A DNA stretch of 20,867 nt from Halalkalibacterium halodurans (lineage in GTDB: Bacteria > Bacillota > Bacilli > Bacillales > Bacillaceae_D), in the NCBI RefSeq assembly GCF_004376175.1, contig NZ_SNUY01000066.1, positions 1 through 20,867 of the forward strand, given 5' to 3'. The position numbers and the translations under genes were made by a program. Positions 3,608 to 18,371 of the stretch are shown here, piece by piece. A model generated the notes under the pieces. That model worked only from the letters and a program-made list of their open reading frames with translations, was not told the DNA's origin and did no database searches. Each line of letters begins with the position of its first letter. Position 1 is the first letter of the stretch.

Positions 3608-3608
3608 T

Positions 3609-3653
3609 GGAAAAGCTAGTTTCTAGGTTAAAGCCTCGGAAGCTAGCTTTTTC
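3609..3653 (+). terminator. Rho-independent terminator candidate after the GH43 gene
   Basis: aaaagctag (3611-3619) pairs with ctagctttt (3643-3651). Inner pairings are ttc/gaa and agg/cct. The 3' arm runs into a T tract (tttttc). Confidence 0.6.
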
Positions 3654-3705
3654 TACTTTAAGAAAATGTCGAAAAGATGAAAGGGTAAAAAAAATCGCAA
3701 ATGTT

Positions 3706-3793
3706 GTCAAGATAATGGCATAAAAAAGGTTGAGAGTATGCAATAATGAAAGCGCTAACAATATTTAGTCTGAAAAGTCAGATAACACGAAGG
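3706..3793 (+). promoter_or_regulatory. Conserved regulatory cassette, copy 2 (upstream of the GH59 gene)
   Basis: Paralogous to 689-776 (see that entry). Weaker similarity with indels extends upstream: AATGTC(A/G)AAA and AATCG(T/C)AAA at about 664-688 versus about 3664-3705. Confidence 0.6.
3747..3760 (+). promoter_or_regulatory. cre site (CcpA catabolite-responsive element)
   Basis: TGAAAGCGCTAACA fits WTGNAANCGNWNNCW at all constrained positions (flanked a...a). It occupies the same position within the conserved cassette as the site at 730-743. Confidence 0.7.
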
Positions 3794-3798
3794 CGAAG

Positions 3799-3836
3799 GT
3801 TAGACCTGAAAAGGGGAGCCCCCGATTTCAGCTAAC
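3799..3836 (+). other. Stable stem-loop in the long 5' leader of the GH59 gene
   Basis: Pairings are gttag(3799-3803)/ctaac(3832-3836), ctgaaa/tttcag and gggg/cccc, giving about 15 bp with small bulges and an agc loop. No T tract follows on either strand, so it is not a canonical terminator. Confidence 0.55.
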
Positions 3837-4007
3837 ATAAACAACAAAAAGTGGAACATAACAGAGCGAAGAAGGTCAGGTTGGGCAACGGAAGACAACA
3901 CAATGAAGGAATTTGCTGACCATCCTCTATTGGAAGGGAGGGACAGATTGTTTTGCTATTTAGCTATCACAAATCGTTCGACCGATAATCAGAGGAAGGA
4001 GAATTTC

Positions 4008-7000
4008 ATGGGAACGAAAAAAAAGATGAAAGTTGCAATTGGATGGATGTGTATTATTTGCCTGCTTTTCAGCTCTATTCCGTTTATACCAACTAGCGAA
4101 ACGAAGGCGGAAGCTGCGACAAAAACGATTACCATTGATGGAAACAAGGTGGATCCCTACAACCGATTTAAAGGCTTTGGAACCGTATCAGCAAACAATA
4201 CGACTCGTTTATTGCTAGATTACAAAGAAGAGCATCCAGAAAAATATTGGGAGATTATGAATCAGTTGTTTAATAAAGAGACGGGGGCTGGGCTCACACA
4301 CGTCAAAGTAGAGCTTGGGGCCGATGTTGACTCCTCTTCTGGAACGGAACCGGCCACGATGCGCTATGCTGATGAACCAGCAAATGTGCTCAGAGGGGCT
4401 GGATTCCAATTCGCGGCAGATGCGAAATCCATCAACCCGAATATTACGACGGAAATTTTGCGCTGGGGTGAACCTCGTTGGACTTGGAATGGGGCGGCCA
4501 ATAAAGAGTATGAAAATCGCTACCAATGGTATAAACAAACAATCGATGCTGTTTATGAAGAGTATGGCTTTCAATTGGACTATATCGGAATCTCGCAAAA
4601 CGAAAGAGCGATCAACAATAATGGGCGAAATGAAGTCGAATGGCTGAAATATTTTACATCAAGAATAAAAGAGGAGCCCAATTATGAAGCAGACTATCAG
4701 GATATTAAACTAGTAGCCGCTGATGGCTATCGCGATACGGCCACCATCAGCCGGACCTTACTCGACAATCCAGACTTAATCGATGAAATCGACGTCATTA
4801 GTTCCCACTACGGGTTGACTGGATCGAATGAACTGGCTCAATTGCAAGAGAAGCTGATCGAAGATGGAAAAAAACCGAAGGAAATTTGGGTATCTGAAGG
4901 AATTGCGCCGATGATCAATGCTCGCTATCGGCTAAATATGGAGCCTCACTATAACGGGTTAGGGGGACGAGCAGGAATCATTGATGTCACGTCACGGATC
5001 ATTTCCGTCTATTCTTGGACAGGAGCAGGGAATTTGCCGCTTCAAGCCGTGTCATTTGATTTTCAACCATCGGTTGCTGCGTTTTACGAAGGGTCTAACT
5101 ACAATCCGAAACACCTCATTAGCGCATCCGACCCGTGGTCTGGCTTTTATGAAATGGACGGCGGGGTTCAAGGGGTCCGTCATGTTATGAATTTTGTCGG
5201 CTACGATGACCGGACGACACCGGAAAATGAGCGTTGGATGTATGTAAAGGATGCCACGTATAGCGATGGGAATTTCTTTGACGGTGGTGTCGATGTTGAT
5301 ACGAGTACGCATAACTACATGACTTTAAAAGACCCTGAAACGGATGACTACACGACGGTTTTTGCCAACAATACAAAACAGACACGGACGTACAAAATCG
5401 AGGCAAAAAACTTGAGTGGAAAAGAGAATGCATCCGTGTATGTTTGGGAAACTCGTGGGCCATATGCAGGACAAGCCTATGATGCGAACTGGTTTAAACA
5501 GATTAATGTCATCACACCTACGGAAGGTGAGTACGAAATTGAAGTCAAGCCGTACTCGATTGTCACGATAACGACGTTAGATAAAAAAGCGGAAATCGAC
5601 GGCTTTGAATATGAATCACAGCCGGTAGATCTTACAAAAGATACGATCATGCCATTGCCGTATACGGATGATTTTGAGTATGATCGCTATCCTGTCGATG
5701 AAAAAGGTAGAGATTACGTGGATCGTCGCGGAGGCACCCCGCGGTATACGACGGATCAGCGTGGTGCATTTGAAGTCGTGAAGGAAGCAACCAAGCCTGT
5801 CACGAAAGGAAGTGCGGAACGTACGAAGCGGGAAATACCGAATGCAGACGCTCACGGAAACATGCTTCAGCAAAAAATCACCCCTGACATCATCGGGGCT
5901 GAATGGGCTGTCTGGGGAGGGATCGATGGGGCCGAGTCAAACAGTAATCCATATACGACAATCGGTGATTTCCGTTGGGTCAACTATAAAGTGTCGTACG
6001 ACTTTTTGTTTGATACGTATACTCCTGAAGTAAGCGGTCGAGCCAATTACGCACTGATTGGCGTTCGTCAAGTGAAGGCTGGCGGCGTCGATTCCAGCGC
6101 GCCGTATAATGCTCGCATCTATACAGACGGAACATATGAAATTCTCAGGTTCGGAAACGTGGTGGAAAAGGGGACGGTTGAAGATTTCGATCAAGAGGTT
6201 TGGCATAACCTTGCGTTTGAAGCAAAAGAGAACGTGTTTACCCTTTACCTTAACGGCGAAGAAATAGCTTCTTATACGGATAAGGATGCAACCGTCATGT
6301 CTGGGCGAGTCGTGTTAGGTTCAGGTTATTATGAAACGCTGTTTGACAATGTGAAAGTGGAACCAATTGAGGGCTATACGTATGAATCAGATAAATTTGA
6401 TAATGCCCGAGGGAAAACTTACGATTCTGAAGAAGAAGCGTTAAACAACATCGATGCCAACAATCCGATCGGCTATGTTGGGAAGTGGAGTTATACGCAA
6501 GCAGGATATGCCCACTTCAATCGTACACTGATGACCGCAGCGACAGATGTCCCTGTGTGGAACGGGGTCACGGTAGGCCATCGGGATTCAACAACGGAAC
6601 AAGGAACGTTAAATAAAGTGTTCTACAATGGAAGTTGGTCTTCAAACAGTGCGAATGCGTGGGGATCTAACGGGGCTTCCTTTGAAATTACTTTTAAAGG
6701 GACAGAGATTCGGCTGTACGGTGTGACCAACCCATCGAACGGAACCGCGGACGTCTATTTAAATGGCGAGTTGGTCGGCGAAGCAAACTACTTCAACAAT
6801 AGCGAAATCACGCAAATGGTCTGGTCGCAAGATAACCTCGAAGACAAAGAGCATACCGTGAAGGTTGTCGCGAAAGAGCGGTTTACGAGCTTTAGCCGAG
6901 CAGAAATCACCACAACCGACTCTGTATTAGCTGTGAAAAAACTAGGGCCGAACGAGATTGTCAAAGTATCAGATGAGGCAGACATCGGCACAGAAGAAAA

Positions 7001-7805
7001 TACTGTCTACGCGTTTCGGAAAAATACGTCCTGGGGATCAAATAACACTAATGCGTGGGCCAACTTTGATGATGATCCGTACATTCTCATTCACTTTACG
7101 GGAACAGGCATTGATTACCTTGCAGGAACGGGAGAACAGACGCTGTACAAATTCGAGTTGGATGGTGAAGACGTCGGTAACTTTGGTGTCGATCCTAGCA
7201 CCGGCATCAGGTATTCCGTTCGAGATCTTGAGGAAGGTCCACATACGTTAAAAGTATCTTTAGGAGAGAATGAACGAAAAGAAACGTTTATGGACTATCG
7301 CGGCGTCAATATTTATAGCACCCCTCAAGCCGACAAACCGACAAGCACGATGATCTTCCAGTTTGAAGGAACAGGATTTAATTTATTCGGAGCCACTCCA
7401 GATGCGCTCATCGACGTCTATATCGACGGAGAACTAGTCGACGAAAATCATCGAGTTCATGCCAAAGGTGACAGGCAAACCTCATACCACATAAGAGGGC
7501 TAGACGATACGAAGCATCTAGCCAAAATTGACATCAAAGGCGGCACCTTTGTGTTCGATGGTCTAGACGTCATCAAAGGCTCATCGAAAAAGGAACAGGA
7601 GGATGTGAAGGGAAAGCTTCAACAGTTATACGAGGCCAATCAAGGCAAAGACAAAAAAGCCTACACGAAAGAAAGCTGGAAGGTGTTCCACAAAGCGATG
7701 CAACATGCGAAGGCGGTGTTGAAAAATCCGAATAGCTCAGTGGATAAACTAGCAGCCGCCCTGACAGCTCTGCAGGAAGCAGTCGAAGGGTTGGAAGAAA
7801 AATAA
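4008..7805 (+). CDS. Secreted GH59-family (galactocerebrosidase-like) beta-galactosidase/galactanase with a C-terminal extension of three CBM-like beta-sandwich repeats and a helical tail
   Basis: The start was moved from the track's ATG 3903 to ATG 4008. RBS GGAAGGAG lies at 3994-4001, and the N-terminus [38 protein letters not shown] is a classic Sec signal peptide. Colinear matches to human GALC, recalled from memory: [17 protein letters not shown]...[24 protein letters not shown] vs GIGAVSGGGATSRLLVNY...[31 protein letters not shown] vs DYIGIWNE (acid/base Glu); IWVSEG vs LWSSED (nucleophile Glu); [10 protein letters not shown] vs [29 protein letters not shown] vs IGDYNWTNLTIKCDVYIET (lectin domain). 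Beyond about nt 6400 there are three repeats: F(E/K/T)GT(E/G)I.LYG...DVYLNGE..G / ...HTVKV (approx 6480-6910, 7000-7270, 7340-7580). A FIVAR-like helix follows: [26 protein letters not shown]...L. Confidence 0.88.
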   Translation: [1265 protein letters not shown]

Positions 7806-9252: not shown

Positions 9253-10086
9253 ATGAAGTTCACGACGAATGACGGATTACAGCTTGTTTACGACCGTCAT
9301 GGAAAGGGAGCACCTTGTCTTTATTTACACGGCGGACCGGGCTATTGGAGTAAGTCATTTCAACAGTGCACACAAAGGCTTTTAGAAGAGAAACTAGAAA
9401 TGATTTATTTGGATCAGCGTGGCTGTGGACGCTCGGATCATTGCCCAAACAAAAACTATTCGTTGCAGCGGCTCATTGATGATGTGGAGCAATTGAGGCA
9501 TAGGTTGGGAATCGATGAATGGTATGTGATGGGGCACTCATTTGGAGGAATCCTTGCTGTCCATTACGCTCACCGTTTTCCCGATAGAACAAAAGGGCTG
9601 ATCCTGGTCAATGCATCGTTACACATGTTAGATTCCCTTCGTCATCAGTTAACAAAAGGTGCAACGATTTTAGGAAGACCAGAAAAGGAACACACTACAA
9701 ATGATCTTGATTTGATCATGAAAGACTATTTGGCGATGGTACAGACTTTGTTAAAAAACGACACGTATTTCACCTTTCAGTTTGTCGACATCACCCAGAA
9801 AAAACGAATGGATGAGGTGGATCGGGATGGATTGAATAGTGACGTCGCCTTTCAACGGTATGTTTTTTCCTCACTTGACTACTTTCAAGATTTTACTCCA
9901 TTAACGGCAAAGATTATGAAACCGACACTGGTTATCGCTGGAGCATATGACCATGCGATTGGCCCGAAACATCATCAGCGGTTCAAATTTGAACATTCTG
10001 ATGTCCGCGTATTAAAAAGCGCACACCATCCTTATCTTGAACATCCAAGCGAATTTCAACAGGCGGTCTTAGACTTTATTGACTAG
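9253..10086 (+). CDS. Alpha/beta-fold hydrolase, proline-iminopeptidase-like (S33)
   Basis: HGGPG oxyanion motif (LYLHGGPGYW). The nucleophile elbow is GHSFGG. The C-terminal HHPYLEHP supplies the catalytic His region. RBS is GAAGGAAG. Confidence 0.85.
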   Translation: MKFTTNDGLQLVYDRHGKGAPCLYLHGGPGYWSKSFQQCTQRLLEEKLEMIYLDQRGCGRSDHCPNKNYSLQRLIDDVEQLRHRLGIDEWYVMGHSFGGILAVHYAHRFPDRTKGLILVNASLHMLDSLRHQLTKGATILGRPEKEHTTNDLDLIMKDYLAMVQTLLKNDTYFTFQFVDITQKKRMDEVDRDGLNSDVAFQRYVFSSLDYFQDFTPLTAKIMKPTLVIAGAYDHAIGPKHHQRFKFEHSDVRVLKSAHHPYLEHPSEFQQAVLDFID

Positions 10087-10112
10087 CTCCATTCAAATGA
10101 ATGGGCTTTTTT
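10087..10112 (+). terminator. Rho-independent terminator after the hydrolase gene
   Basis: ccattc (10089-10094) pairs with gaatgg (10099-10104) around the loop aaat, followed by gc and TTTTTT (10107-10112). Confidence 0.65.
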
Positions 10113-10137
10113 GTCATGAAGCAAGAACAAAAATCTT

Positions 10138-10166
10138 TTGACACATGAAGTGGTCTCGTTTAAAAT
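10138..10166 (+). promoter_or_regulatory. Sigma-A promoter of the zagA/yciC-like gene
   Basis: TTGACA (10138-10143), a 17-nt spacer, then TAAAAT (10161-10166). This is a near-consensus promoter. Confidence 0.75.
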
Positions 10167-10172
10167 TGAAAA

Positions 10173-10187
10173 TAGTAATTATTACGA
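10173..10187 (+). promoter_or_regulatory. Zur box (Fur-family 7-1-7 operator)
   Basis: TAGTAATtATTACGA matches the B. subtilis Zur consensus TCGTAATnATTACGA at 13 of 14 positions, with matching AAA/TTT flanks. It lies 7 nt downstream of the -10 and so covers the transcription start region. Confidence 0.8.
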
Positions 10188-10215
10188 TTTACAAAAAGGA
10201 TTTTAGGAGGCCCAT

Positions 10216-11415
10216 ATGAGTCAAACGATTCCGGTCACGGTTTTAAGTGGATATCTTGGATCAGGGAAAACAACGTTGCTTAATCATCTATTGAAAAATC
10301 GCCAAGGGTTAAAAATTGCGGTAATTGTCAATGACATGAGTGAAGTGAACATTGACGCCGAATTGGTGAAGCAGGGCGGTGAATTGTCTAGGACGGAAGA
10401 GAAATTAGTTGAGATGTCCAATGGCTGTATTTGCTGCACATTACGTGAGGATTTGTTAATTGAAGTCGAGAAGCTAGCACGTGCGGGAAATATTGATTAT
10501 ATCGTCATTGAATCGACCGGCATTAGCGAGCCGATCCCTGTGGCACAAACATTTTCCTACATTGACGAGGAACTTAACATTGATTTAACGAAGTTTTGCC
10601 GCTTGGATACGATGGTGACGGTTGTGGATGCGAATCGTTTTTGGCATGATTTTCGCTCAGGTGACAGCCTGCTTGATCGAAAGGAGGCGCTCGGTGAGGA
10701 AGATGAGCGGGAGATTGCCGATTTGCTTATTGATCAAATCGAGTTTTGCGATGTGCTGCTGTTAAACAAGTGTGATCTTGTGGAAGAAGCGGAGCTTGAG
10801 AAACTAGAAAGCGTGCTCAAAACTTTACAGCCAAAAGCGAAAATCATTCGCACGATTAACGCGGAGGTTGACCCGAAAGAGATATTACATACGGGGCGAT
10901 TTAACTTTGAAGAGGCGAGCAACTCTGCCGGTTGGATCCGAGAGCTTACAGCTGGACACGCGCAGCATACACCGGAAACGGAGGAATATGGGATTTCGTC
11001 GTTCGTCTATACGAGACGGGAGCCGTTCCATTCAGAACGCTTCAACCACTGGATTCATTCGATGCCTGAAAATATCGTTCGAGCTAAAGGGATTGCATGG
11101 TGCGCCACGCGAAACAACTTGGCGCTTTTACTCTCACAGGCGGGACCGTCTGTAACCATCGAGCCTGTTTCATTTTGGGTTGCCAGCCTTCCAGAGGCAG
11201 AGAAGCAGCACATTTTACGAGAAAATCCCCACTTGCTAGAGGCTTGGGATGAAACGTACGGAGATCGTCATACTAAATTAGTGTTTATTGGAACCGACTT
11301 AAACCCGGAAGAGATTACACGTGAATTAGATCACTGTCTGTTAACAGACGGAGAGTTTTCGTCGGATTGGGAGCAGCTAGAAGACCCATTCAAGTGGAAT
11401 TTGCAAAGAGCGTAG
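10216..11415 (+). CDS. zagA: COG0523 zinc metallochaperone GTPase, ZagA (YciC) orthologue
   Basis: 399 aa with RBS AGGAGG. It is near-colinear with B. subtilis YciC as recalled from memory: IPVTVLSGYLGSGKTTLLN (P-loop), MSNGCICCTLREDLL (CxCC metal motif), IVIESTGISEPIPVAQTF (switch II), LLLNKCDLV (NKxD), and the CobW_C region FVYTRREPFHSERF...VRAKGIAWCA. A Zur box lies upstream. Confidence 0.93.
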   Translation: MSQTIPVTVLSGYLGSGKTTLLNHLLKNRQGLKIAVIVNDMSEVNIDAELVKQGGELSRTEEKLVEMSNGCICCTLREDLLIEVEKLARAGNIDYIVIESTGISEPIPVAQTFSYIDEELNIDLTKFCRLDTMVTVVDANRFWHDFRSGDSLLDRKEALGEEDEREIADLLIDQIEFCDVLLLNKCDLVEEAELEKLESVLKTLQPKAKIIRTINAEVDPKEILHTGRFNFEEASNSAGWIRELTAGHAQHTPETEEYGISSFVYTRREPFHSERFNHWIHSMPENIVRAKGIAWCATRNNLALLLSQAGPSVTIEPVSFWVASLPEAEKQHILRENPHLLEAWDETYGDRHTKLVFIGTDLNPEEITRELDHCLLTDGEFSSDWEQLEDPFKWNLQRA

Positions 11416-11429
11416 ACGGCTCCTCTAAA

Positions 11430-11465
11430 AAAGATAGAGCTCAACTTTGATTGGGTTCTATCTTT
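11430..11465 (+). terminator. Weak terminator or attenuating hairpin between the two COG0523 genes
   Basis: aaagataga (11430-11438) pairs with tctatcttt (11457-11465) around an 18-nt loop. The downstream sequence is only moderately T-rich (cattgttt). Confidence 0.4.
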
Positions 11466-11475
11466 CATTGTTTAT

Positions 11476-11507
11476 AAATAAGGATAATTACGATTTATGA
11501 AACGTAA
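11476..11507 (+). promoter_or_regulatory. Degenerate Zur-like operator upstream of the second COG0523 gene
   Basis: The right half-site plus flank, ATTACGATTTA (11487-11497), is identical to the right arm of the boxes at 10181-10191 and 17612-17622. The left half TAAGGAT matches TCGTAAT at only 3 of 7 positions. The same ATTACG is also part of a second palindrome, TTACGaTTT-atg-AAACGTAA (11488-11507). Confidence 0.45.
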
Positions 11508-11540
11508 CAATAAAAGAGTACACATTTGGAGGGAGATCAA

Positions 11541-12488
11541 ATGGTGAAAGTACCGGTATTTATCTTAAGTGGTTTTTTAGGAAGCGGGAAAACAACGTTA
11601 CTGGAACGGCTGTTAGTTGAAAGTGAAAAGAGAAAACTAAAATCTGCGGTGTTAATGAATGAGATGGGAAAAACCGATACAGATGGCCAGATGATTTCAG
11701 AGAAAAGTCATCAGGTCGAAAAGTTATTAGATGGTTGTATGTGCTGCAATAAAAAAAGTGAAGTGGTTAACTGCATGGAAACGTTGTTAGCGCGAAAGCC
11801 TGACGTGCTTTTTATTGAGCTAACAGGTGTAGCCAACCCTGAAGAAGTAGTCGACTCGTTGACAGAGCCTCAGATCATTGATCGAGTGTACGTGAAGAAG
11901 ATAATTACATTAATCGATGCGGAGAATATTCTTGCTTATAACAGTTTGTTTGACTCCGATCGAGAGCTTGTAAAAACAACGAGACGGCAAGTGGAGGTAG
12001 GGGATTTCCTCATAGTTAATAAAATCGACTTAGTGTCAGATTCAAAAAAAGCGAAAATCGAAAAATTCATTAAACGGCTCAATCCTGTTGCCAAGACCGT
12101 ATTTTCTACGTACAGCAAGGTGGAGTTAGATTCACTTTTTAATACGGCACCATCCTCGATCGAGCACAACCGTATGAGACTCAAAACGAATGATCATCAT
12201 CATTCGTTTTCAAGAGTGAAAAGCATCACCTTATCCCTCTCCACACAAACAAGAAAGAAGGACATTGAAAGGTTTTTGAAAAAGTGGAAACCCCGACTAC
12301 TGAGGGCTAAAGGGTATGTTCATTTTGAGAATGGTACGTATTTGATGCAGCAGGCCATGAAGCGGGTTCAATGGTCACGTGCCCTTTTTCATGGCGAGCC
12401 GTACATTGTCTTAATCGGAATCGACTTACACGAGCATGAGATCAAAGAAGATTGGGCGCAGCTTGTGGAGAAAGCAACGGTTGGATAG
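11541..12488 (+). CDS. Short COG0523 (CobW/YjiA-like) GTPase with intact motifs
   Basis: ATG 11541 is preferred over the track's TTG 11526, with GGAGGG at 11528-11533. Motifs: P-loop GFLGSGKTTLL, CxCC GCMCC, FIELTGVANP, VNKIDLV, a His run NDHHHSF, and the CobW_C region LLRAKGYVHFENG...YIVLIGIDL. 315 aa. Confidence 0.88.
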   Translation: MVKVPVFILSGFLGSGKTTLLERLLVESEKRKLKSAVLMNEMGKTDTDGQMISEKSHQVEKLLDGCMCCNKKSEVVNCMETLLARKPDVLFIELTGVANPEEVVDSLTEPQIIDRVYVKKIITLIDAENILAYNSLFDSDRELVKTTRRQVEVGDFLIVNKIDLVSDSKKAKIEKFIKRLNPVAKTVFSTYSKVELDSLFNTAPSSIEHNRMRLKTNDHHHSFSRVKSITLSLSTQTRKKDIERFLKKWKPRLLRAKGYVHFENGTYLMQQAMKRVQWSRALFHGEPYIVLIGIDLHEHEIKEDWAQLVEKATVG

Positions 12489-12494
12489 ACGAAG

Positions 12495-12522
12495 TAGCTG
12501 CCTTATGCGGCTGCTTTTTTTT
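12495..12522 (+). terminator. Rho-independent terminator after the second COG0523 gene
   Basis: gctgcc pairs with ggctgc (one internal mismatch) around the loop ttatgc, followed by T8 (12515-12522). Confidence 0.65.
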
Positions 12523-12544
12523 GATGACTTCATTTTTTTCTAAA

Positions 12545-12559
12545 TCATAATAATTCTGA
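12545..12559 (+). promoter_or_regulatory. Fur-family 7-1-7 operator (Zur-like, specificity ambiguous) upstream of the permease pair
   Basis: taaaTCATAATaATTCTGAttta is a palindromic 7-1-7 site with Zur-type AAA/TTT flanks. It matches 11 of 14 positions to the Zur consensus, and also 11 of 14 to the Fur and PerR consensus boxes. The discriminating dinucleotide is CA in both arms (Zur CG, Fur GA, PerR TA). It overlaps a possible -10, CATAAT (12546-12551). Confidence 0.5.
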
Positions 12560-12616
12560 TTTACTGTTTGTCCGCATAGAGATGAAATAACCTACGTGCG
12601 GAGAGAAGGGAACTGG

Positions 12617-13618
12617 ATGGATACGAAACAGGATTATACGGGAGTTGTAGGTTTTCTGTTGCTTGGGCTAGCGGCGATCGTGATGGTCTTTCATAAGCAG
12701 TTCACGCTCCATCAGCTCATCTTGCCTGAATCGCTATTAACGTTCAATGTGATTTTTTTAAGTATTTTTATCGAAGCGATTCCGTTTGTGTTAATCGGTG
12801 TATTGATTGCTGGAATCATTCAAGTGTTTGTTACCGAAGCTCATCTTAAACGATTCATTCCGCAACATCCGTTCTTGGCGGTCATTTCCAGCTGTTTCAT
12901 TGGAGCGCTGTTTCCGGCGTGTGAATGCGGGATTGTTCCGATCGTGCGTCGCTTAATCGCAAAGGGAGTTCCCCTTTACGCCGGAGTAGGGTTTCTCCTG
13001 ACAGGTCCTTTGATTAATCCGATCGTGCTGTTTTCCACCTATGTGGCGTTTGGAGGAAGTCTACCGATGGCCTTTTTACGTATGTCGCTCGGGCTCGTCA
13101 TCGCCATCATTGTCGCTGGGCTGATTGCGAGTGTTTTTAGGCGAAATCAGCTAAAGCGGACAAGAGAAGATGTCACACGTGGTGAAACTGCTGGATCGAA
13201 GCCTCCGTTAGGCGAAAGGTTTAACGCGATGTTTCGACATTCAATTGATGAATTTTTTGACATGGGAAAGTTTTTAATGATCGGTGCACTGTTAGCTGCA
13301 TTCGTTCAAACCTATGTTTCAACTAGCTCTCTCCTCGGACTTAGTGAAGGGATCGTTACGTCTACGCTCATCATGATGGGACTTGCTTACCTTCTTTCTT
13401 TATGTTCAGAGGCGGATGCCTTTATTGCGGCTTCCTTTCATCATGTGTTCCCGCAAACCTCGCTCCTTGGATTTTTAATTTACGGCCCAATGTTAGATTT
13501 GAAAAATACGATCATGATGCTGGCGGTCTTTAAGTTTCGATTTGTCATGGTGCTAATGGTGATGATCACAGGCACCGTTGCGGGGATTTTGCTACTAATG
13601 CATCCATGGATTGACTAG
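12617..13618 (+). CDS. Polytopic membrane permease, COG0701 / DUF318 (ArsP_1-like) family
   Basis: ATG 12617 is preferred over the track's GTG 12596, with the GGAGAGAAGGG RBS region upstream. The protein is highly hydrophobic with about 8 or more predicted TM segments. It carries the family-typical Cys motif FPACECGIVPIVRRL and a second half with LSLCSEADAFIAASF. The stop overlaps the RBS of the next gene. Confidence 0.8.
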   Translation: MDTKQDYTGVVGFLLLGLAAIVMVFHKQFTLHQLILPESLLTFNVIFLSIFIEAIPFVLIGVLIAGIIQVFVTEAHLKRFIPQHPFLAVISSCFIGALFPACECGIVPIVRRLIAKGVPLYAGVGFLLTGPLINPIVLFSTYVAFGGSLPMAFLRMSLGLVIAIIVAGLIASVFRRNQLKRTREDVTRGETAGSKPPLGERFNAMFRHSIDEFFDMGKFLMIGALLAAFVQTYVSTSSLLGLSEGIVTSTLIMMGLAYLLSLCSEADAFIAASFHHVFPQTSLLGFLIYGPMLDLKNTIMMLAVFKFRFVMVLMVMITGTVAGILLLMHPWID

Positions 13619-13629
13619 GAGGGCAGACG

Positions 13630-14361
13630 ATGATGTACATACGCACAAACCAATTGCTGAAAGCGGTCATCTTATTGCTGTTTGCGGTGTTTCTCTTCCT
13701 GTTGCATGAGACGGGAGAGATCGCTCGGTTTATCAACCCCCAATACGTGCACCTCAGTCAAATTGCGTCGATCCTCTTCTTGTTTTTATTTTTCATCCAA
13801 GTGCCGAGAATGTTCACGAATTCAGAGGACGACCTTTGCGGGTGTGGCCTTTGGGGCTGTAGTCATGGAGAAGAAGGACGTTTTGCTATGAAGCATGTTA
13901 TTTCCTATGGACTCATCAGCTTGCCACTAATGATCGGCTTTCTGTTCCCATTTAAAGATTTTGGAGCGGCTGAAGCGCTAAAACGAGGGGTTCAGTATCA
14001 AGTATCCCAACACGAAGCACGCGATGAAGCCTCTTTAGAGAAAAATGTGCAAGAGCTGCTGGAGCAGTCTGCTTTGATATTACACCGTGACAATTTCGTT
14101 AGCTCATTGCGGGCGCTAACGACATACCCTACGCGCTTTGTTGGCAAACCAATTTTGCTAGAAGGGTTTATTATAGAGGACTGTCAGGATGAAAAGGTGA
14201 CGGTCATTACACGATTTCTCGTCACCCATTGTGTCGCGGACAGCCATGCGGCAGGATTCATCCTTGAGCATGAGGATTCATTAGGGGGAAGAGAGGATCA
14301 ATGGCTTCAAGTAATGGGTGTGTTAGATGTCAAAATAGAGACTCGGAAATTAAATAGCTAA
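13630..14361 (+). CDS. TIGR03943 / DUF1980 partner subunit of the two-component membrane permease
   Basis: RBS GGAGGG at 13618-13623. There are two N-terminal TM helices, a Cys/His cluster DDLCGCGLWGCSHGEE (about nt 13831-13875), a third TM helix, then a soluble domain with the family-typical motif THCVADSHAAGFIL. It is translationally coupled to the COG0701 permease. Confidence 0.75.
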   Translation: MMYIRTNQLLKAVILLLFAVFLFLLHETGEIARFINPQYVHLSQIASILFLFLFFIQVPRMFTNSEDDLCGCGLWGCSHGEEGRFAMKHVISYGLISLPLMIGFLFPFKDFGAAEALKRGVQYQVSQHEARDEASLEKNVQELLEQSALILHRDNFVSSLRALTTYPTRFVGKPILLEGFIIEDCQDEKVTVITRFLVTHCVADSHAAGFILEHEDSLGGREDQWLQVMGVLDVKIETRKLNS

Positions 14362-14502
14362 TTCTGGGTCTTTTGGGGGATGAAAGCGAGATTCAAGAGG
14401 ACCAATTGGAATTTTCAACGTCATTTTCAAAAAAGTGCATGTTAAATAAACCACAAGCAGTGGATTTTTTAAAAAATGTATTTTAAGATGTTGATGATGG
14501 CT

Positions 14503-16005
14503 TTATAGGGAGAGCAGAGATTTAATTATGGGATCTATAGTTGAGAAATGATTCTTTTCTGCTTCCTTCATCCAGGCATCGGCATGTTGGCACATGCCGA
14601 TGATGTAACTTCGAATATTCCAATGTCTAGAACTACGACCTCTTGAATCCTCTAAACGATAATCAATTTTTTGTCGTTTGATACAACGCTCGACCCCAGT
14701 ACGTAAAGCATAACGCTTATACCATTCCTTACTATCACGTTTTACTCTAGGAAAAAGACGAGGGTTATCCTTCGTCGATGTATAAAAGGTCCGTCCATAA
14801 GCAGATTCTGAACAAGGTGTGGGACATGTCCATTTTCCAACGACAGCTGGACAGCGCCATTTACGGCGATATCGTTTCTTATCGACTCCCCAATCGAGCA
14901 TTTTTCTACCGATGGGACAGATTGGAACGCCGTCTAAGTTAATGTCCATTTCATTGTAGATGAACTGTTTTGAACGCCTTGGATTGAGGTCAATGATGGC
15001 AGAAACATCATGGTGTTCTAACATTTCATAGATCGGATAAGCATCCAGAGCTGAGTCTAGGATGACTTCACCAAACGTCCAATCGGGATACCAATGTTTG
15101 AGTTCATGGAAGGTACTGACAAACAAGACAGAGTCATGTTTACTGGCACGATACATCCTAGGATAAATCGGTAAATCATAAGGACTATCCGAAGCAGCTA
15201 CCATGAAAAGACTTCTACCATAATAGTACTTTTCACGAGAACTATCCCAACCGTAATCAGCATCAGGGTCTGAAAACTGCCGTTGACATTGGCATTTCCA
15301 ATTACCTTGTTTACGGCAGTCACAAAGGAACTTACCATAAGGCCGACCACCTGTTATCACGGGAGATCCGTCAGCCATCATGCTTAGTGATTGGGTGTTC
15401 CCTACTAATCCTTTCGATGCGGATGGATGAACGAATAAAGACTGAAAAAGGATTTGGAGCTGGTCGTGGGCCTTGGCTGTATATCGAACTTTCTTGTTTT
15501 TTAAGGCACGCTTCACTAACTTTTGAACAATTTTCGGATTTTTCGGTTCAAGTTTCTGATTCTTTTTTCCTTTCTTTTTTGCCTTCTTTAATTTTCGCTT
15601 CTTCCGATTGGATAGATGTGGAGAAGGAGCTAACCAAAGGCGATTGAAAAAGTCATAAAAGGTTCCTACTCCAGGAACATTATCCGGAGTAAAGCCACTA
15701 AGAATAGCCCAAATGGGAGTTGTTTTTAAGGTGAACACCCATTGATCTACACTGGTAACCTTTTGATCATGCATAAGCATTAAACTACGAAGCATATCAC
15801 AAGGATTACGGGGTTTTCTTCCTCTGGGATTCGAGGAATAGCGATGTTTCAGGAGAGTGCCAGCATCGGTTAGATCAACCAAAGAACACCAAACGATAGG
15901 TTTGGAGTAAAAATCCGTTAAAAAAGTTTTGTCATCGAATTGTAGATCTAGCTGTTCAACAACAAAGTTAAGATAAGATTCATGTGTACGAATGTTAGTA
16001 AGCAT
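14503..16005 (-). CDS. DDE transposase, IS1182-like
   Basis: 500 aa. The N-terminal DUF772-like region is GRKPRNPCDMLRSLMLMH...S. A Lys-rich linker follows. The DDE region has DPDADYGWDSSREKYYYGRSLF and VILDSALDAYPIY. A Cys-rich insertion is VPICPIGRKMLDW...WRCPAVVGKWTCPTPCSES. The C-terminal region RTGVERCIKRQK has the pattern typical of IS1182/IS5-type enzymes. The family call is from memory. Confidence 0.8.
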   Translation of the reverse strand: MLTNIRTHESYLNFVVEQLDLQFDDKTFLTDFYSKPIVWCSLVDLTDAGTLLKHRYSSNPRGRKPRNPCDMLRSLMLMHDQKVTSVDQWVFTLKTTPIWAILSGFTPDNVPGVGTFYDFFNRLWLAPSPHLSNRKKRKLKKAKKKGKKNQKLEPKNPKIVQKLVKRALKNKKVRYTAKAHDQLQILFQSLFVHPSASKGLVGNTQSLSMMADGSPVITGGRPYGKFLCDCRKQGNWKCQCQRQFSDPDADYGWDSSREKYYYGRSLFMVAASDSPYDLPIYPRMYRASKHDSVLFVSTFHELKHWYPDWTFGEVILDSALDAYPIYEMLEHHDVSAIIDLNPRRSKQFIYNEMDINLDGVPICPIGRKMLDWGVDKKRYRRKWRCPAVVGKWTCPTPCSESAYGRTFYTSTKDNPRLFPRVKRDSKEWYKRYALRTGVERCIKRQKIDYRLEDSRGRSSRHWNIRSYIIGMCQHADAWMKEAEKNHFSTIDPIIKSLLSL

Positions 16006-16045
16006 AATTATTCCCCCATTTCAAGTGATGAAAAAACCTTTCACT

Positions 16046-16074
16046 TAATTATTTGAGGAACAAATGTTTGTCAA
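16046..16074 (-). promoter_or_regulatory. Sigma-A promoter for the IS transposase
   Basis: On the minus strand: TTGACA (complement of 16069-16074), a 17-nt spacer, then TAATTA (complement of 16046-16051). It lies about 40 nt upstream of the transposase ATG. Confidence 0.5.
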
Positions 16075-16113
16075 GAGGAAAGTTTGTTCGCACTCCTGTT
16101 TTGGGGGTGAAGC

Positions 16114-16144
16114 AATAAAAAAGCCCTAGTCAAAAGACTAGAGC
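16114..16144 (-). terminator. Rho-independent terminator of the rpsN2 / degenerate-COG0523 operon
   Basis: The minus-strand RNA reads gctctagtc-uuuu-gactagggc (a 9-bp stem including one G-U pair), followed by TTTTTTATT. The plus strand has no T tract after the hairpin. Confidence 0.8.
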
Positions 16145-16263
16145 TGGTGCGGAAAATTAATTTCCGAGTAGCTATTCAAACAACATGGAGGGGTTTTATT
16201 ACCTGTCATCCGCGTCATCGAGTGGGAGGAAATTGAACCTCCCGCAAACCCATACGTCTATCC

Positions 16264-17292
16264 TTAACCAAAGGCGATTCGATCATGGTTTGGTTGTAGG
16301 CACTCATGAAGGAGACGACTAAGTGCGTCACGATCTAGCTCAAAACCAATAAACAATAACTCTGTTTGAACGTCACGGTTCTCCATTAGATCTGTGGTCG
16401 TTGTGTCAACTTGAATATGGGCACCTACTTGAGAAATGGAGTGAAGCTCACCTGTTTGCGGGTTATAGCAACGCCCCTTCATGCGAAAAATGTCGTTCGG
16501 AAGATGCTCGAAAAATCGCTCCAACTGGTGAATGCCAACAGGCTGTGAGCTTTGATAGAAAAACGTATCAACCCCGTAGTTGTGGATCACTTTTACATGT
16601 TGTCGTGAAGCGACAAGGTTCCGCTGTTCCACATAAAGAGACGCATAGCCGTTCTTGTCAAAGGTTGTATGCCCCTTTTGGCAACGTTGAATGGCTTCGT
16701 GCAAATCACATAGCAACGCTCGTGGCTGGAGCACGCGTAAAAAGGCTGTAAGTTCACCGAGGCGCTCAGAGGAAAGCCCATACTGGTGATAAAGACAAAG
16801 GGTGTCCGCTAACTCTAGCTGAAGGATGAGCGCTTCCCCTAACGTTTGAGTGAAATCTTGGTCAGCGGTGATAATCTCGTGTTCTGAGAAGTAAGAAAAC
16901 CAAAACGCTTTAGCATCCAATACATGAATATGGGATGCAATGAACCAGTGATGATCTGAAGTGAATTGCTCTAAAAGGCTGTCGATGGATGAGAAAGGAG
17001 AAACATCTAAAAGAATCTCATCTGTGCTACGGTTTTGGTGCTCTTTAGCTAATAACGACATCAAATCAGCTTCGGTTGTCGCTTCCACATGATGGATCGC
17101 CTCGCCAATAAAGCTCGTGACCGGAAAAGGATCCTCACCATTTAATGTAAGCTTCATAGCTTTGGGGTGAAAGCGAATGATCTTTACGTGGTTTTGTCGG
17201 TTTTCTTGATAGCTTTTCATCAACTCTCTCTTCCCGTTTTCCGAGAAGCCTGAGATCACTGTGAGTGGCTTTTGTCTATTCAACCTCGACAC
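16264..17292 (-). CDS. Degenerate COG0523/CobW-family paralogue (predicted GTPase-dead, lacking the CxCC motif)
   Basis: 342 aa from GTG 17292. An alternative TTG at 17283 has better spacing from AAGGGG. The N-terminus aligns to the COG0523 P-loop region but reads LTVISGFSENGKRELM instead of GxxGSGKTTLL. No CxCC is present: the equivalent region is IGEAIHHVE. Switch II IESTG is replaced by LLDVSP, and NKxD by LYHQYG. The CobW_C domain is preserved: VDTFFYQSSQPVGIHQLERFFEHLPNDIFRMKGRCYNP...ELLFIGFELD. It starts 15 nt after the rpsN2 stop with no intervening terminator. Confidence 0.8.
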   Translation of the reverse strand: MSRLNRQKPLTVISGFSENGKRELMKSYQENRQNHVKIIRFHPKAMKLTLNGEDPFPVTSFIGEAIHHVEATTEADLMSLLAKEHQNRSTDEILLDVSPFSSIDSLLEQFTSDHHWFIASHIHVLDAKAFWFSYFSEHEIITADQDFTQTLGEALILQLELADTLCLYHQYGLSSERLGELTAFLRVLQPRALLCDLHEAIQRCQKGHTTFDKNGYASLYVEQRNLVASRQHVKVIHNYGVDTFFYQSSQPVGIHQLERFFEHLPNDIFRMKGRCYNPQTGELHSISQVGAHIQVDTTTTDLMENRDVQTELLFIGFELDRDALSRLLHECLQPNHDRIAFG

Positions 17293-17307
17293 CCCTTGTC
17301 TAATTCA

Positions 17308-17577
17308 TTACCAGCTTGATTTTTTCACGCCAGGAATTTGCCCTTTATGTGCAAGCTCGCGAAACGCAATCCGTGACAGCTTGAACTTGCGTAAGACGCC
17401 CCGTGGTCTGCCGGTCATTTCGCATCGTCTCGTTAACCGAGTAGGGGAGGAGTCTCGAGGAAGCTTTCGGAGTGCTTCGTAGTCACCTTTTTCTTTTAAC
17501 TCTTTTCTTAATTCTGCATAACGAGCGACGAGCTCCTGACGTTTTTTTTCCTTTGCGACTTTTGATTTCTTCGCCAT
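17308..17577 (-). CDS. rpsN2: 30S ribosomal protein S14, long zinc-independent (C-minus) paralogue
   Basis: The start was trimmed to [13 protein letters not shown]..., with ATG at the complement of 17575-17577 and RBS AAGGTGG. The 89-aa product is nearly colinear with B. subtilis YhzA/RpsN2 as recalled (...[51 protein letters not shown]). It lacks the CxxC...CxxC zinc ribbon of the 61-aa form. Confidence 0.93.
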
Positions 17578-17603
17578 AACGTTTACCACCTTTCTTTTGA
17601 AAA

Positions 17604-17618
17604 TCAAAATCATTACGA
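17604..17618 (-). promoter_or_regulatory. Zur box 1 upstream of rpsN2
   Basis: aaaTCAAAATcATTACGAttt matches the Zur consensus at 12 of 14 core positions, with a perfect right arm and flanks. It lies just downstream of a candidate minus-strand promoter, TTACTT-16-TATGAT. Confidence 0.75.
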
Positions 17619-17670
17619 TTTATATCATAGTAGAAATAGCGTCCGAAGTAAAGGGCTGTGACGAAATCAA

Positions 17671-17685
17671 TCGTAATCGTTACGG
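17671..17685 (-). promoter_or_regulatory. Zur box 2 upstream of rpsN2
   Basis: TCGTAATcGTTACGG has a perfect left arm and a right arm matching 5 of 7. It lies 67 bp from box 1. It overlaps a second possible minus-strand promoter, TTGGCT-16-TACGAT. Confidence 0.6.
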
Positions 17686-17761
17686 TTTGTTAGCCAAACT
17701 TAGTTGCTTAAGGCGATAATCACTCAGCGACAACAGAAAAAAGAGCTAATGAATCGAGCGA

Positions 17762-17789
17762 AACCTCTCTGAGATTTCTCAGAGAGGTT
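17762..17789 (-). terminator. Perfect 12-bp hairpin downstream of the isochorismatase-family gene (terminator candidate without a clear U tract)
   Basis: aacctctctgag (17762-17773) pairs with ctcagagaggtt (17778-17789) around the loop attt. Only a short TTT follows on the minus strand. Confidence 0.45.
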
Positions 17790-17813
17790 GAACCATTTAG
17801 AAGAAAGCCTATC

Positions 17814-18371
17814 CTACCGAAATTGATTATGTGTAGGCTCGAACAAAGCTTCGTTCGTATTTCTGACGATTGAAAAGTGGTCTACATTGTAATGGCCGTG
17901 GAGGGCTTCGTTATGATGAAGAATGATTTGTTTAGCAGACAACGTTTTTGAATCAGTAGTAGAATGTCCATCTCCAACTAATGTGACATCAACATGACGG
18001 ACGGTGGCCGTTCTGACGGCAGTATCGATACAATGTTCTGTTTTACAACCCATCATCACAAGGTGTTGGATGTTGTTTTCCGTTAAATATGTGTCTAGTG
18101 GTGTACCGTAAAAACAATTGGTGGCGGATTTATTAAAAATAACCGCTGATGGGGGCACCTTAATGTCTTTGTGAATGTCGAATCCAGGCCCTTCTCCATT
18201 GGCAACATCTACATCTCTTATAAAAACAATAGCGGCGTTTTCAGTATTCGCTTTTTCAATGACCGTATTGATGTTTGCTACGAGACGTTCTTTCTCAAAA
18301 ACGGGTGGAACTTCTTTAGAACCTTCGATTAATTCCTGCTGGGCGTCAATAATGATGAGGGCTTGTTTCAA
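17814..18371 (-). CDS. Isochorismatase-family cysteine hydrolase
   Basis: TTG start with a strong RBS, GGAGGAG, 5 nt upstream. Catalytic triad context: ALIIIDAQ (Asp), FNKSATNCF (Lys), LVMMGCKTEHCIDTAV (Cys). 185 aa. Confidence 0.85.
   Translation of the reverse strand: MKQALIIIDAQQELIEGSKEVPPVFEKERLVANINTVIEKANTENAAIVFIRDVDVANGEGPGFDIHKDIKVPPSAVIFNKSATNCFYGTPLDTYLTENNIQHLVMMGCKTEHCIDTAVRTATVRHVDVTLVGDGHSTTDSKTLSAKQIILHHNEALHGHYNVDHFSIVRNTNEALFEPTHNQFR

Follow-up and report, generated by a model that had tools for sequence, protein, structure and literature searches.

The stretch of DNA analyzed here (the window) comprises 20,867 nt of contig NZ_SNUY01000066.1 from Halalkalibacterium (Bacillus) halodurans, with a G+C content of approximately 44%. 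Between 10.1 and 17.7 kb it carries a zinc-starvation island, made up of two COG0523 genes, a permease gene and a TIGR03943 gene as well as, on the opposite strand, a paralogue of ribosomal protein S14 and a COG0523-like gene. We deal mainly with the pair formed by the permease, a member of the ArsP_1 family, and the TIGR03943 protein. An earlier inspection of the window, made without database searches (hereafter the sequence-only reading), had put this pair forward as a candidate zinc importer. The features of the pair are the following:

12491-12517, + strand: intrinsic (rho-independent) terminator with an 11-bp stem and then a T-run, separating the permease unit from the second COG0523 gene
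12541-12563, no strand: degenerate Zur box TAAATCATAATAATTCTGATTTA, operator of the permease pair, matching the 10-1-10 Zur box at 17 of 20 positions and scoring 18.9 bits with a position weight matrix (PWM)
12567-12579, + strand: conserved 13-nt element TTTGTCCGCATAG (consensus CTTGTCCGCATAT), between the operator and the ribosome-binding site
12617-13618, + strand: ArsP_1/COG0701 permease (PF03773) of 333 aa, with a frame open up to a GTG at 12596
13630-14334, + strand: TIGR03943/DUF1980 accessory subunit, codons 1-235, the 5' part of a split gene whose open reading frame (ORF) continues into an insertion sequence (IS) with a stop at 14359-14361
14335-16175, - strand: inserted IS, 1841 bp long, bounded by 20-nt terminal inverted repeats; its DDE transposase matches IS1182 weakly
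14503-16005, - strand: transposase gene of the IS
14330-14334 and 16176-16180: 5-bp target duplication TCAAA
16181-16267, + strand: 3' end of the TIGR03943 gene, cut off from the rest by the IS: 28 codons (QHGGVLLPVIRVIEWEEIEPPANPYVYP) with the stop, identical to the C-terminus of the intact H. halodurans orthologue P0001

The permease matched the PF03773 ArsP_1 profile at 236.5 bits (cutoff 32.3), over profile positions 3-283 of 294, and has the same sequence (100% identity) as a 333-aa permease annotated in H. halodurans. The accessory ORF scored 120.3 bits with TIGR03943 (cutoff 88.8) and 72.4 and 75.8 bits with the N- and C-terminal domains of DUF1980 (cutoff 25.9), and the subunit is 97% identical to an annotated H. 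halodurans protein. These scores, all over the cutoffs, confirmed the membership in PF03773/COG0701 and TIGR03943 that had been proposed from the letters of the window. At E ≤0.001, the two-subunit family counts 3745 representative clusters. The permease ends with TAG at 13616-13618 and the ATG of the accessory gene stands at 13630, with an 11-nt gap and an AGGAGGG overlapping the stop codon. Of the translational coupling claimed for the two genes, the close spacing is confirmed; an overlap of the genes was not found.

The three motifs singled out in the sequence-only reading (FPACECGIVP, DDLCGCGLWGCSHGEE and THCVADSH) are all present in the translated sequences. In the permease, C102-E103-C104, a C-x-C in a membrane segment, was invariant in 120 homologues, as was FPACECGIVPIV, and LSLCSEADAF was invariant in 44. 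The conserved membrane C-x-C pair is a hallmark of the ArsP_1 family, known from work on ArsP. An AlphaFold2 model of the permease, with a predicted local distance difference test score (pLDDT) of 84.6, placed both invariant motifs at helix breaks (85-98/103-115 and 246-260/264-273), which suggests that they may be the tips of two pseudo-symmetric hairpins making one site. A fold search with this model gave TRAP SiaQM and DASS-type transporters as top matches, which were non-significant (E at least 0.24, TM-score of approximately 0.4), and no solved structure matching the permease or the TIGR03943 subunit by sequence was found. We also compared the permease with efflux models. It scored 79.8 bits with NF033936, the SO_0444 family Cu/Zn efflux model (residues 47-185 aligned to profile positions 1-136), against a cutoff of 300, and is therefore not considered a member of that family; with the SaoE efflux transporter model NF040736 it scored 64.8 bits (cutoff 325). 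In another H. halodurans strain (GCA_036223845.1; L088:7100-7160), we noticed a 1-nt deletion in a T7 run of the permease gene, equivalent to window positions 12753-12759. The frame shifts at approximately codon 47 and the permease is called as two pieces of 47 and 276 aa. This deletion could reflect true inactivation of the gene, or else a sequencing error in the homopolymer.

For the accessory subunit, conservation was assessed in 143 representatives with pairwise identity <50%. Residues R195, C201 and D204 were conserved in 100% of them, and position 200 was Cys in 102 and His in 41, which defines the motif R-x4-[C/H]-C-x-A-D. In the loop after the second membrane helix, C72, C77 and H79 were kept in 74-85% of the representatives (C77 in 82%, H79 in 85%). 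Furthermore, this loop contained Cys/His in 135 representatives and at least three His in 64, and long His-rich expansions were present in some genera. The Cys/His clusters, whose non-conservation the sequence-only reading had named as a point against its own proposal, are conserved family-wide. The AlphaFold model of the accessory subunit (mean pLDDT 74.7, confident over residues 133-263) consists of three N-terminal helices and a beta-barrel domain, for which generic OB folds were the best PDB matches (E ~1e-3).

The TIGR03943 gene in the window is a disrupted member of its family. Its 243-aa ORF (13630-14361) aligns with the intact 263-aa orthologue P0001 up to residue 235 (position 14334) and then runs for 8 codons into the IS, so the gene end placed at 14361 in the sequence-only reading is an artefact of an insertion that splits the gene after codon 235. 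The 20-nt inverted repeats, at 14334-14353 and 16157-16176, bracket the DDE transposase gene, and strain GCA_036223845.1 has the empty site: aligned with the window, it is interrupted at 14334 and 16176, and the two aligned segments overlap by 5 bp. The lost residues 236-263 include the last strands of the predicted barrel and the invariant C-terminal P-Y-x-Y-P; P256, P259, Y260 and Y262, invariant or near-invariant in the family, all lie in the displaced C-terminus. The profile match ends at position 112 of 141, and the C-terminal domain is incomplete. Since the IS removes the last 28 codons with these invariant residues, the split allele is probably inactive and the system non-functional in the window strain. 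Deletion experiments in this strain would probably be uninformative because its copy is truncated by the IS.

We then considered the operator. The palindrome TCATAATAATTCTGA (12545-12559) matches the Zur, Fur and PerR 15-mers at 11 of 14 positions each, a count given in the sequence-only reading that we reproduced. At positions 2 and 14 the operator has the C and G typical of Zur boxes, and it retains intact AAAT/ATTT flanks of the 10-1-10 box. A promoter-like ATGACT-16-CATAAT lies ahead of the permease, with the candidate -10 CATAAT within the Zur box. Because of this site, with its -10 in the palindrome, and of the terminator at 12491-12517, we consider the pair to be its own transcription unit with its own operator. 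The position of the pair directly downstream of two COG0523 genes, given in the sequence-only reading, is confirmed, with the terminator in between. The PWM was trained on 43 distinct Zur boxes from the promoters of S14-paralogue and ZigA-like genes in related genomes, with permease promoters excluded. Over the 20.9-kb window, its top five sites were all in promoter regions of the island, at 30.0, 24.6, 18.9 (the permease), 18.3 and 13.2 bits; the sixth site scored -3.2 bits and the 99.9th percentile of the background was -10.6. Zur-type sites were found 9 times in the window, compared with 1.3 expected, and none of 100 shuffles reached 9. In 13 close relatives, the operator position reads TAAATCGTAATnATTAT(G/T)ATTT, where the left half is a perfect Zur half-site; close relatives carry TAAATCGTAATnATTATGATTT there. 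From these comparisons, the H. halodurans operator is read as a weakened Zur box. In five other loci (L025:~200-225, L026, L027, L029 and L030), from Alkalihalobacterium, Alkalihalobacillus sp. BA299 and Ammoniphilus, the place of the operator holds AAATCAGAAC-n-ATTCTTTTTT-like sequence and no Zur box. The H. halodurans box looks intermediate toward this type, which could reflect drift or a changed specificity of the regulator.

The association extends to other species. In 80 species-representative loci, searched within 400 nt upstream of the permease, a Zur box was found in 39 at ≤2 mismatches and in 53 at ≤3 mismatches, compared with 3.5% and 6.75% of 2000 control windows taken from the same loci. 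A Fur box at ≤2 mismatches was found upstream of the permease in none of the 80 loci and a PerR box in one. The identity of the metal, left unsettled in the sequence-only reading on account of the equal 11/14 core matches, is therefore largely settled toward Zur by the PWM score, the canonical boxes of the orthologues and the enrichment of Zur boxes alone, and the place of the permease pair in the Zur regulon is well supported at the level of sequence. The permease stands immediately before the DUF1980 gene in all 80 loci, and the order is the same in Streptococcus, Paenibacillus and Anoxybacillus. A COG0523 gene lies ≤3 kb from the pair in 52 loci (co-directional directly upstream in 26, divergent in 17), and the S14 paralogue is present in 19. 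The Zur link of the pair, as judged from its boxes, reaches beyond Bacillaceae: Paenibacillus has a 1-mismatch Zur box approximately 55 nt upstream of the pair and a convergent cobW, and Anoxybacillus a divergent cobW with a Zur box.

Between operator and start codon, the CTTGTCCGCATAT element was found with ≤2 mismatches in 26 of the 80 loci, at a fixed spacing to the box and the start codon (e.g., L001:8938-8950): it follows the Zur box by approximately 15 nt and precedes the start of the permease by approximately 50 nt. It is also kept in loci where the box has drifted from the Zur consensus. A hairpin at this element was rejected, since RNAalifold gave only weak Shine-Dalgarno pairing (-1 kcal/mol) and no covariation. 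By eye, pairing with the start-codon region was seen in some species only, and no convincing fit to a sigma-A promoter was found. No Rfam match for a riboswitch or leader RNA was obtained near the pair at E ≤1 over positions 10000-18000.

The rest of the island is laid out as follows:

10138-10166: promoter TTGACA-17-TAAAAT of the first COG0523 gene, just upstream of its Zur box
10169-10191, no strand: Zur box of the first COG0523 gene AAAATAGTAATTATTACGATTTA, 13 of 14 to the Zur 15-mer, 30.0 bits, the top PWM site of the window
10216-11415, + strand: COG0523 GTPase, ZigA/YciC-like, with a CxCC motif and cobW and CobW_C domains
11475-11497, no strand: weak box of the Zur type before the second COG0523 gene, in which one half-site is good, 13.2 bits, the fifth-ranked PWM site
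11526-12488, + strand: second COG0523 GTPase, with CxCC and a His-rich stretch, supported by profile matches
16264-17292, - strand: degenerate COG0523-like protein downstream of the S14 paralogue, with a CobW_C domain only and no CxCC
17308-17577, - strand: paralogue of ribosomal protein S14 in which the zinc-binding cysteines are missing, classically a target of Zur (Ribosomal_S14 match in the orthologous locus)
17600-17622, no strand: Zur box ahead of the S14 paralogue, 24.6 bits, 12 of 14 to the Zur 15-mer
17667-17689, no strand: second Zur-type box, farther upstream of the S14 paralogue, 18.3 bits

The first COG0523 GTPase scored 529.6 bits with the ZigA model, under its cutoff of 600. The orthologue of the second is immediately upstream of the permease and co-directional with it in 26 of the 80 species. 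The degenerate COG0523-like protein has a degraded Walker A (GFSENGKR), and its gene is kept at the same position after the S14 paralogue in relatives, at 42-48% identity. It is reminiscent of the COG0523-family factor whose gene adjoins alternative ribosomal protein genes in mycobacteria. The two Zur-type boxes of the S14 paralogue are 67 nt apart, start to start, a doubling like that reported for B. anthracis yciC. Upstream of the island, at 788-7805, the window codes for two very large secreted glycoside-hydrolase-like proteins of 939 and 1300 aa, seemingly unrelated to the pair; the 1300-aa protein has a Glyco_hydro_59 match in the orthologous locus. Among the neighboring ORFs scanned by profiles, no ars genes (ArsR, ArsC and related) were found beside the permease.

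The Zur link of the permease is not new, since binding of B. anthracis Zur to the promoter region of BAS1632 was published from an electrophoretic mobility shift assay (EMSA; Kandari et al. 2019, PMC6336718). The protein BAS1632 belongs to ArsP_1, has Zur boxes in its promoter region and was likened by the authors to SMU_747c (PMC6336718). The idea therefore has more precedent than the sequence-only reading assumed; the breadth of the association, the map of ligands and the explicit hypothesis of import go beyond what we found in print. Compared by family and context, BAS1632 resembles the window permease in belonging to ArsP_1 and in having a COG0523 neighbor (yciC, BAS1633). However, the COG0523 gene of B. 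anthracis is apparently divergent and shares a control region with BAS1632, as the same EMSA primer sequences are given for both targets, whereas in the window the pair comes after two COG0523 genes of the same orientation, with a separate and weaker box.

The pairs SMU.746/747 of S. mutans and ScfAB of S. pyogenes have the same order as the window pair, ArsP_1 then DUF1980, and a streptococcal representative (P0300) carries the invariant [C/H]-C-x-A-D motif. Unlike the window, the streptococcal locus that we examined has no COG0523 neighbor and no Zur box. The phenotypes described for SMU.746/747 and ScfAB concern acid tolerance, biofilm formation and soft-tissue or in-vivo fitness (PMC5584981), and amino-acid transport was proposed by the S. 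mutans authors, in the words quoted from them in the same source (PMC5584981). In the literature, we found no report of a metal link for the streptococcal homologues and, under the family names, no substrate assignment for the two-subunit family, whose function is still unknown according to a 2025 review (PMC12173739). In Streptococcus locus L082 (4967-5098), a 43-aa ORF with the Pfam domain SPJ_0845_N lies directly upstream of the permease and ends at the permease start, and an AdcR-like site with 1 mismatch (TTAACAATTTAA) was seen approximately 75 nt upstream of this ORF.

Proteins of the SO_0444/Shew_3410 type and ArsP belong to the same Pfam family as the window permease; they are exporters induced by metal excess, and no TIGR03943 partner is mentioned for them in our sources. 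Since the ArsP-related gene Shew_3410 confers zinc resistance in Shewanella, the ArsP_1 fold can handle zinc. ZnuABC, ZIP/ZupT and ZevAB share with the pair the proposed role of acquiring zinc under scarcity. No sequence relationship of the pair to ABC or ZIP transporters emerged from profile searches. ZevAB of Haemophilus influenzae is likewise a two-gene system distinct from ZnuABC; zevAB expression depends on FNR and not on zinc. TRAP-type and elevator transporters are likewise built from two unequal parts, a large transport subunit and a small membrane one. This likeness is weak and without homology (E at least 0.24), and the accessory domain is OB-fold-like and not a periplasmic binding protein.

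We propose that the pair works as a secondary transporter of two subunits, repressed by Zur and serving the response to zinc starvation in Bacillaceae and their relatives. Its most likely job would be the uptake of Zn(II) through the cytoplasmic membrane, and we put the probability of this reading at approximately 50%. When zinc is scarce, Zur would leave the operator overlapping the -10 and both genes would be transcribed. The ArsP_1 subunit would form the translocation path, with its P-A-C-E-C and L-C-S-E-A-D motifs at the predicted helix breaks, and both motifs would contribute thiolate and carboxylate ligands for a divalent cation of borderline or soft character. The TIGR03943 subunit would be a membrane-anchored accessory with a Cys/His-rich loop and an OB-fold-like domain, whose [C/H]-C-x-A-D site would capture the metal or hand it on, possibly to the co-regulated COG0523 GTPases. 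The energy presumably comes from the membrane potential because no ATPase gene accompanies the pair. Of the zinc-uptake role argued earlier from the context, the setting in a zinc-limitation (Zur) locus and the COG0523 linkage (52 of 80) were upheld; the substrate is inferred from the regulation, and the direction of transport in turn from the substrate. More tentatively, with the odds somewhat against it, ArsP_1 plus TIGR03943 could be an unrecognized class of zinc-uptake system, neither ABC nor ZIP and widespread in Bacillota, in which the accessory loop and the [C/H]-C-x-A-D site of the OB domain would form a Zn(II) relay linking the permease to the COG0523 metallochaperones.

Several observations weigh against Zn(II) uptake as the job of the pair. 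At 18.9 bits, the permease operator scores under the weakest training box (20.8), and neither half holds a perfect TCGTAAT (the half-sites are TCATAAT and TCAGAAT). Approximately a third of the species (27 of 80) have no recognizable Zur box upstream of the permease even at 3 mismatches. The authors of the B. anthracis study gave BAS1632 no substrate and read the position of its box as activation (PMC6336718). A second, more divergent copy of the pair was noticed in several Bacillaceae (L047:2892-4523, L061:11050-12660, L066:11049-12662 and L081); the one examined (L081), a second copy from Bacillus shivajii, has, like the streptococcal locus, neither a Zur box nor a COG0523 neighbor. The zinc link thus marks a clade and not necessarily the whole family, and zinc may be the substrate of one subfamily only. 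The damage to the genes in two H. halodurans strains also counts here, since a pair that is IS-truncated in one and frameshifted in the other would be dispensable, at least in culture. The topology is ambiguous by counts of positive residues, and the accessory model is of poor quality in residues 66-130. With three anchoring helices, the His/Cys loop would face one side of the membrane and the OB domain the other; with two, as predicted for ScfB (PMC5584981), both would be inside. Cys-rich motifs of this kind would suit Cu(I), Cd, arsenic or sulfur compounds too. Finally, those ArsP_1 relatives whose function has been named, from the SO_0444 Cu/Zn efflux family to SaoE and ArsP, are all exporters.

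This last point leads to a Zur-controlled exporter, either of a zinc-chelating small molecule secreted to scavenge the metal or of a competing toxic metal (Cu, Cd) let in, during zinc starvation, by uptake systems that are then derepressed. Zur regulons do include metallophore exporters, namely the staphylopine and pseudopaline systems, and the record of the family, from the NCBIfam names to Shew_3410, is one of efflux throughout. However, no chelator biosynthesis genes were seen close to the pair, either in the window or in the other loci that we inspected, the permease stays far under the efflux-family cutoffs (79.8 vs 300; 64.8 vs 325), and its constant neighbors are intracellular zinc chaperones, which fit inward delivery better, so that we regard export as unlikely. 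We hold a similarly low opinion of an importer for another metal required under zinc shortage, e.g., Co, Ni, Mn or Fe to serve zinc-independent enzyme paralogues, or of a broad soft-metal importer including Cu(I). The CxC, CC and His-rich motifs are not specific to zinc, and COG0523 proteins also serve Co and Fe (CobW and the nitrile hydratase activators). Furthermore, a cobalamin riboswitch lies approximately 1.3 kb upstream of the Paenibacillus pair. In Paenibacillus chitinolyticus (L084:3406-3613 and 11624-11703), we observed this cobalamin riboswitch before a methyltransferase gene that precedes the pair, and a ZTP riboswitch before folD. The former is judged to control the methyltransferase gene, given the terminator and the separate Zur box found between that gene and the pair. 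The signature of the regulator is specifically that of Zur, Fur and PerR boxes are not enriched, and the neighboring COG0523 gene is of the ZigA/YciC type, all of which argue against another metal.

Returning to the substrate, the cysteines could serve the chemistry of an amino acid, an organosulfur or an organoarsenic compound, the Zur link being secondary. ArsP carries methylarsenite, and the amino-acid transport proposed by the S. mutans authors and the streptococcal acid-tolerance and virulence phenotypes, which have no known zinc link, lean the same way. However, the window is without ars genes, many genera share the context of Zur box and COG0523 gene, and His-rich loop expansions are typical of metal handling, which makes a non-metal substrate improbable. 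Control by Fur or PerR, with the pair answering to iron or peroxide, is very improbable and we rejected it: the 15-mer core fits all three consensus sequences at 11/14, but the C/G at positions 2/14, the intact AAAT/ATTT flanks (17/20), the canonical Zur boxes at the orthologous sites, four more Zur-type boxes in the same island and the lack of any species with a ≤2-mismatch Fur box, without enrichment over the 80 species, all point to Zur.

Zn(II) uptake under Zur therefore remains the reading that we favor. The family includes streptococcal virulence and fitness genes. If the zinc link is firm, the pair would represent a new type of importer, a possible membrane partner for COG0523 chaperones and an explanation of the in-vivo phenotypes of ScfAB; a new class of zinc-uptake system, if real, would explain the need of S. 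pyogenes for ScfAB in zinc-poor host tissue. The comparative data presented here sharpen the hint from B. anthracis into a defined hypothesis, with named residues and a warning that the window strain is unsuitable.

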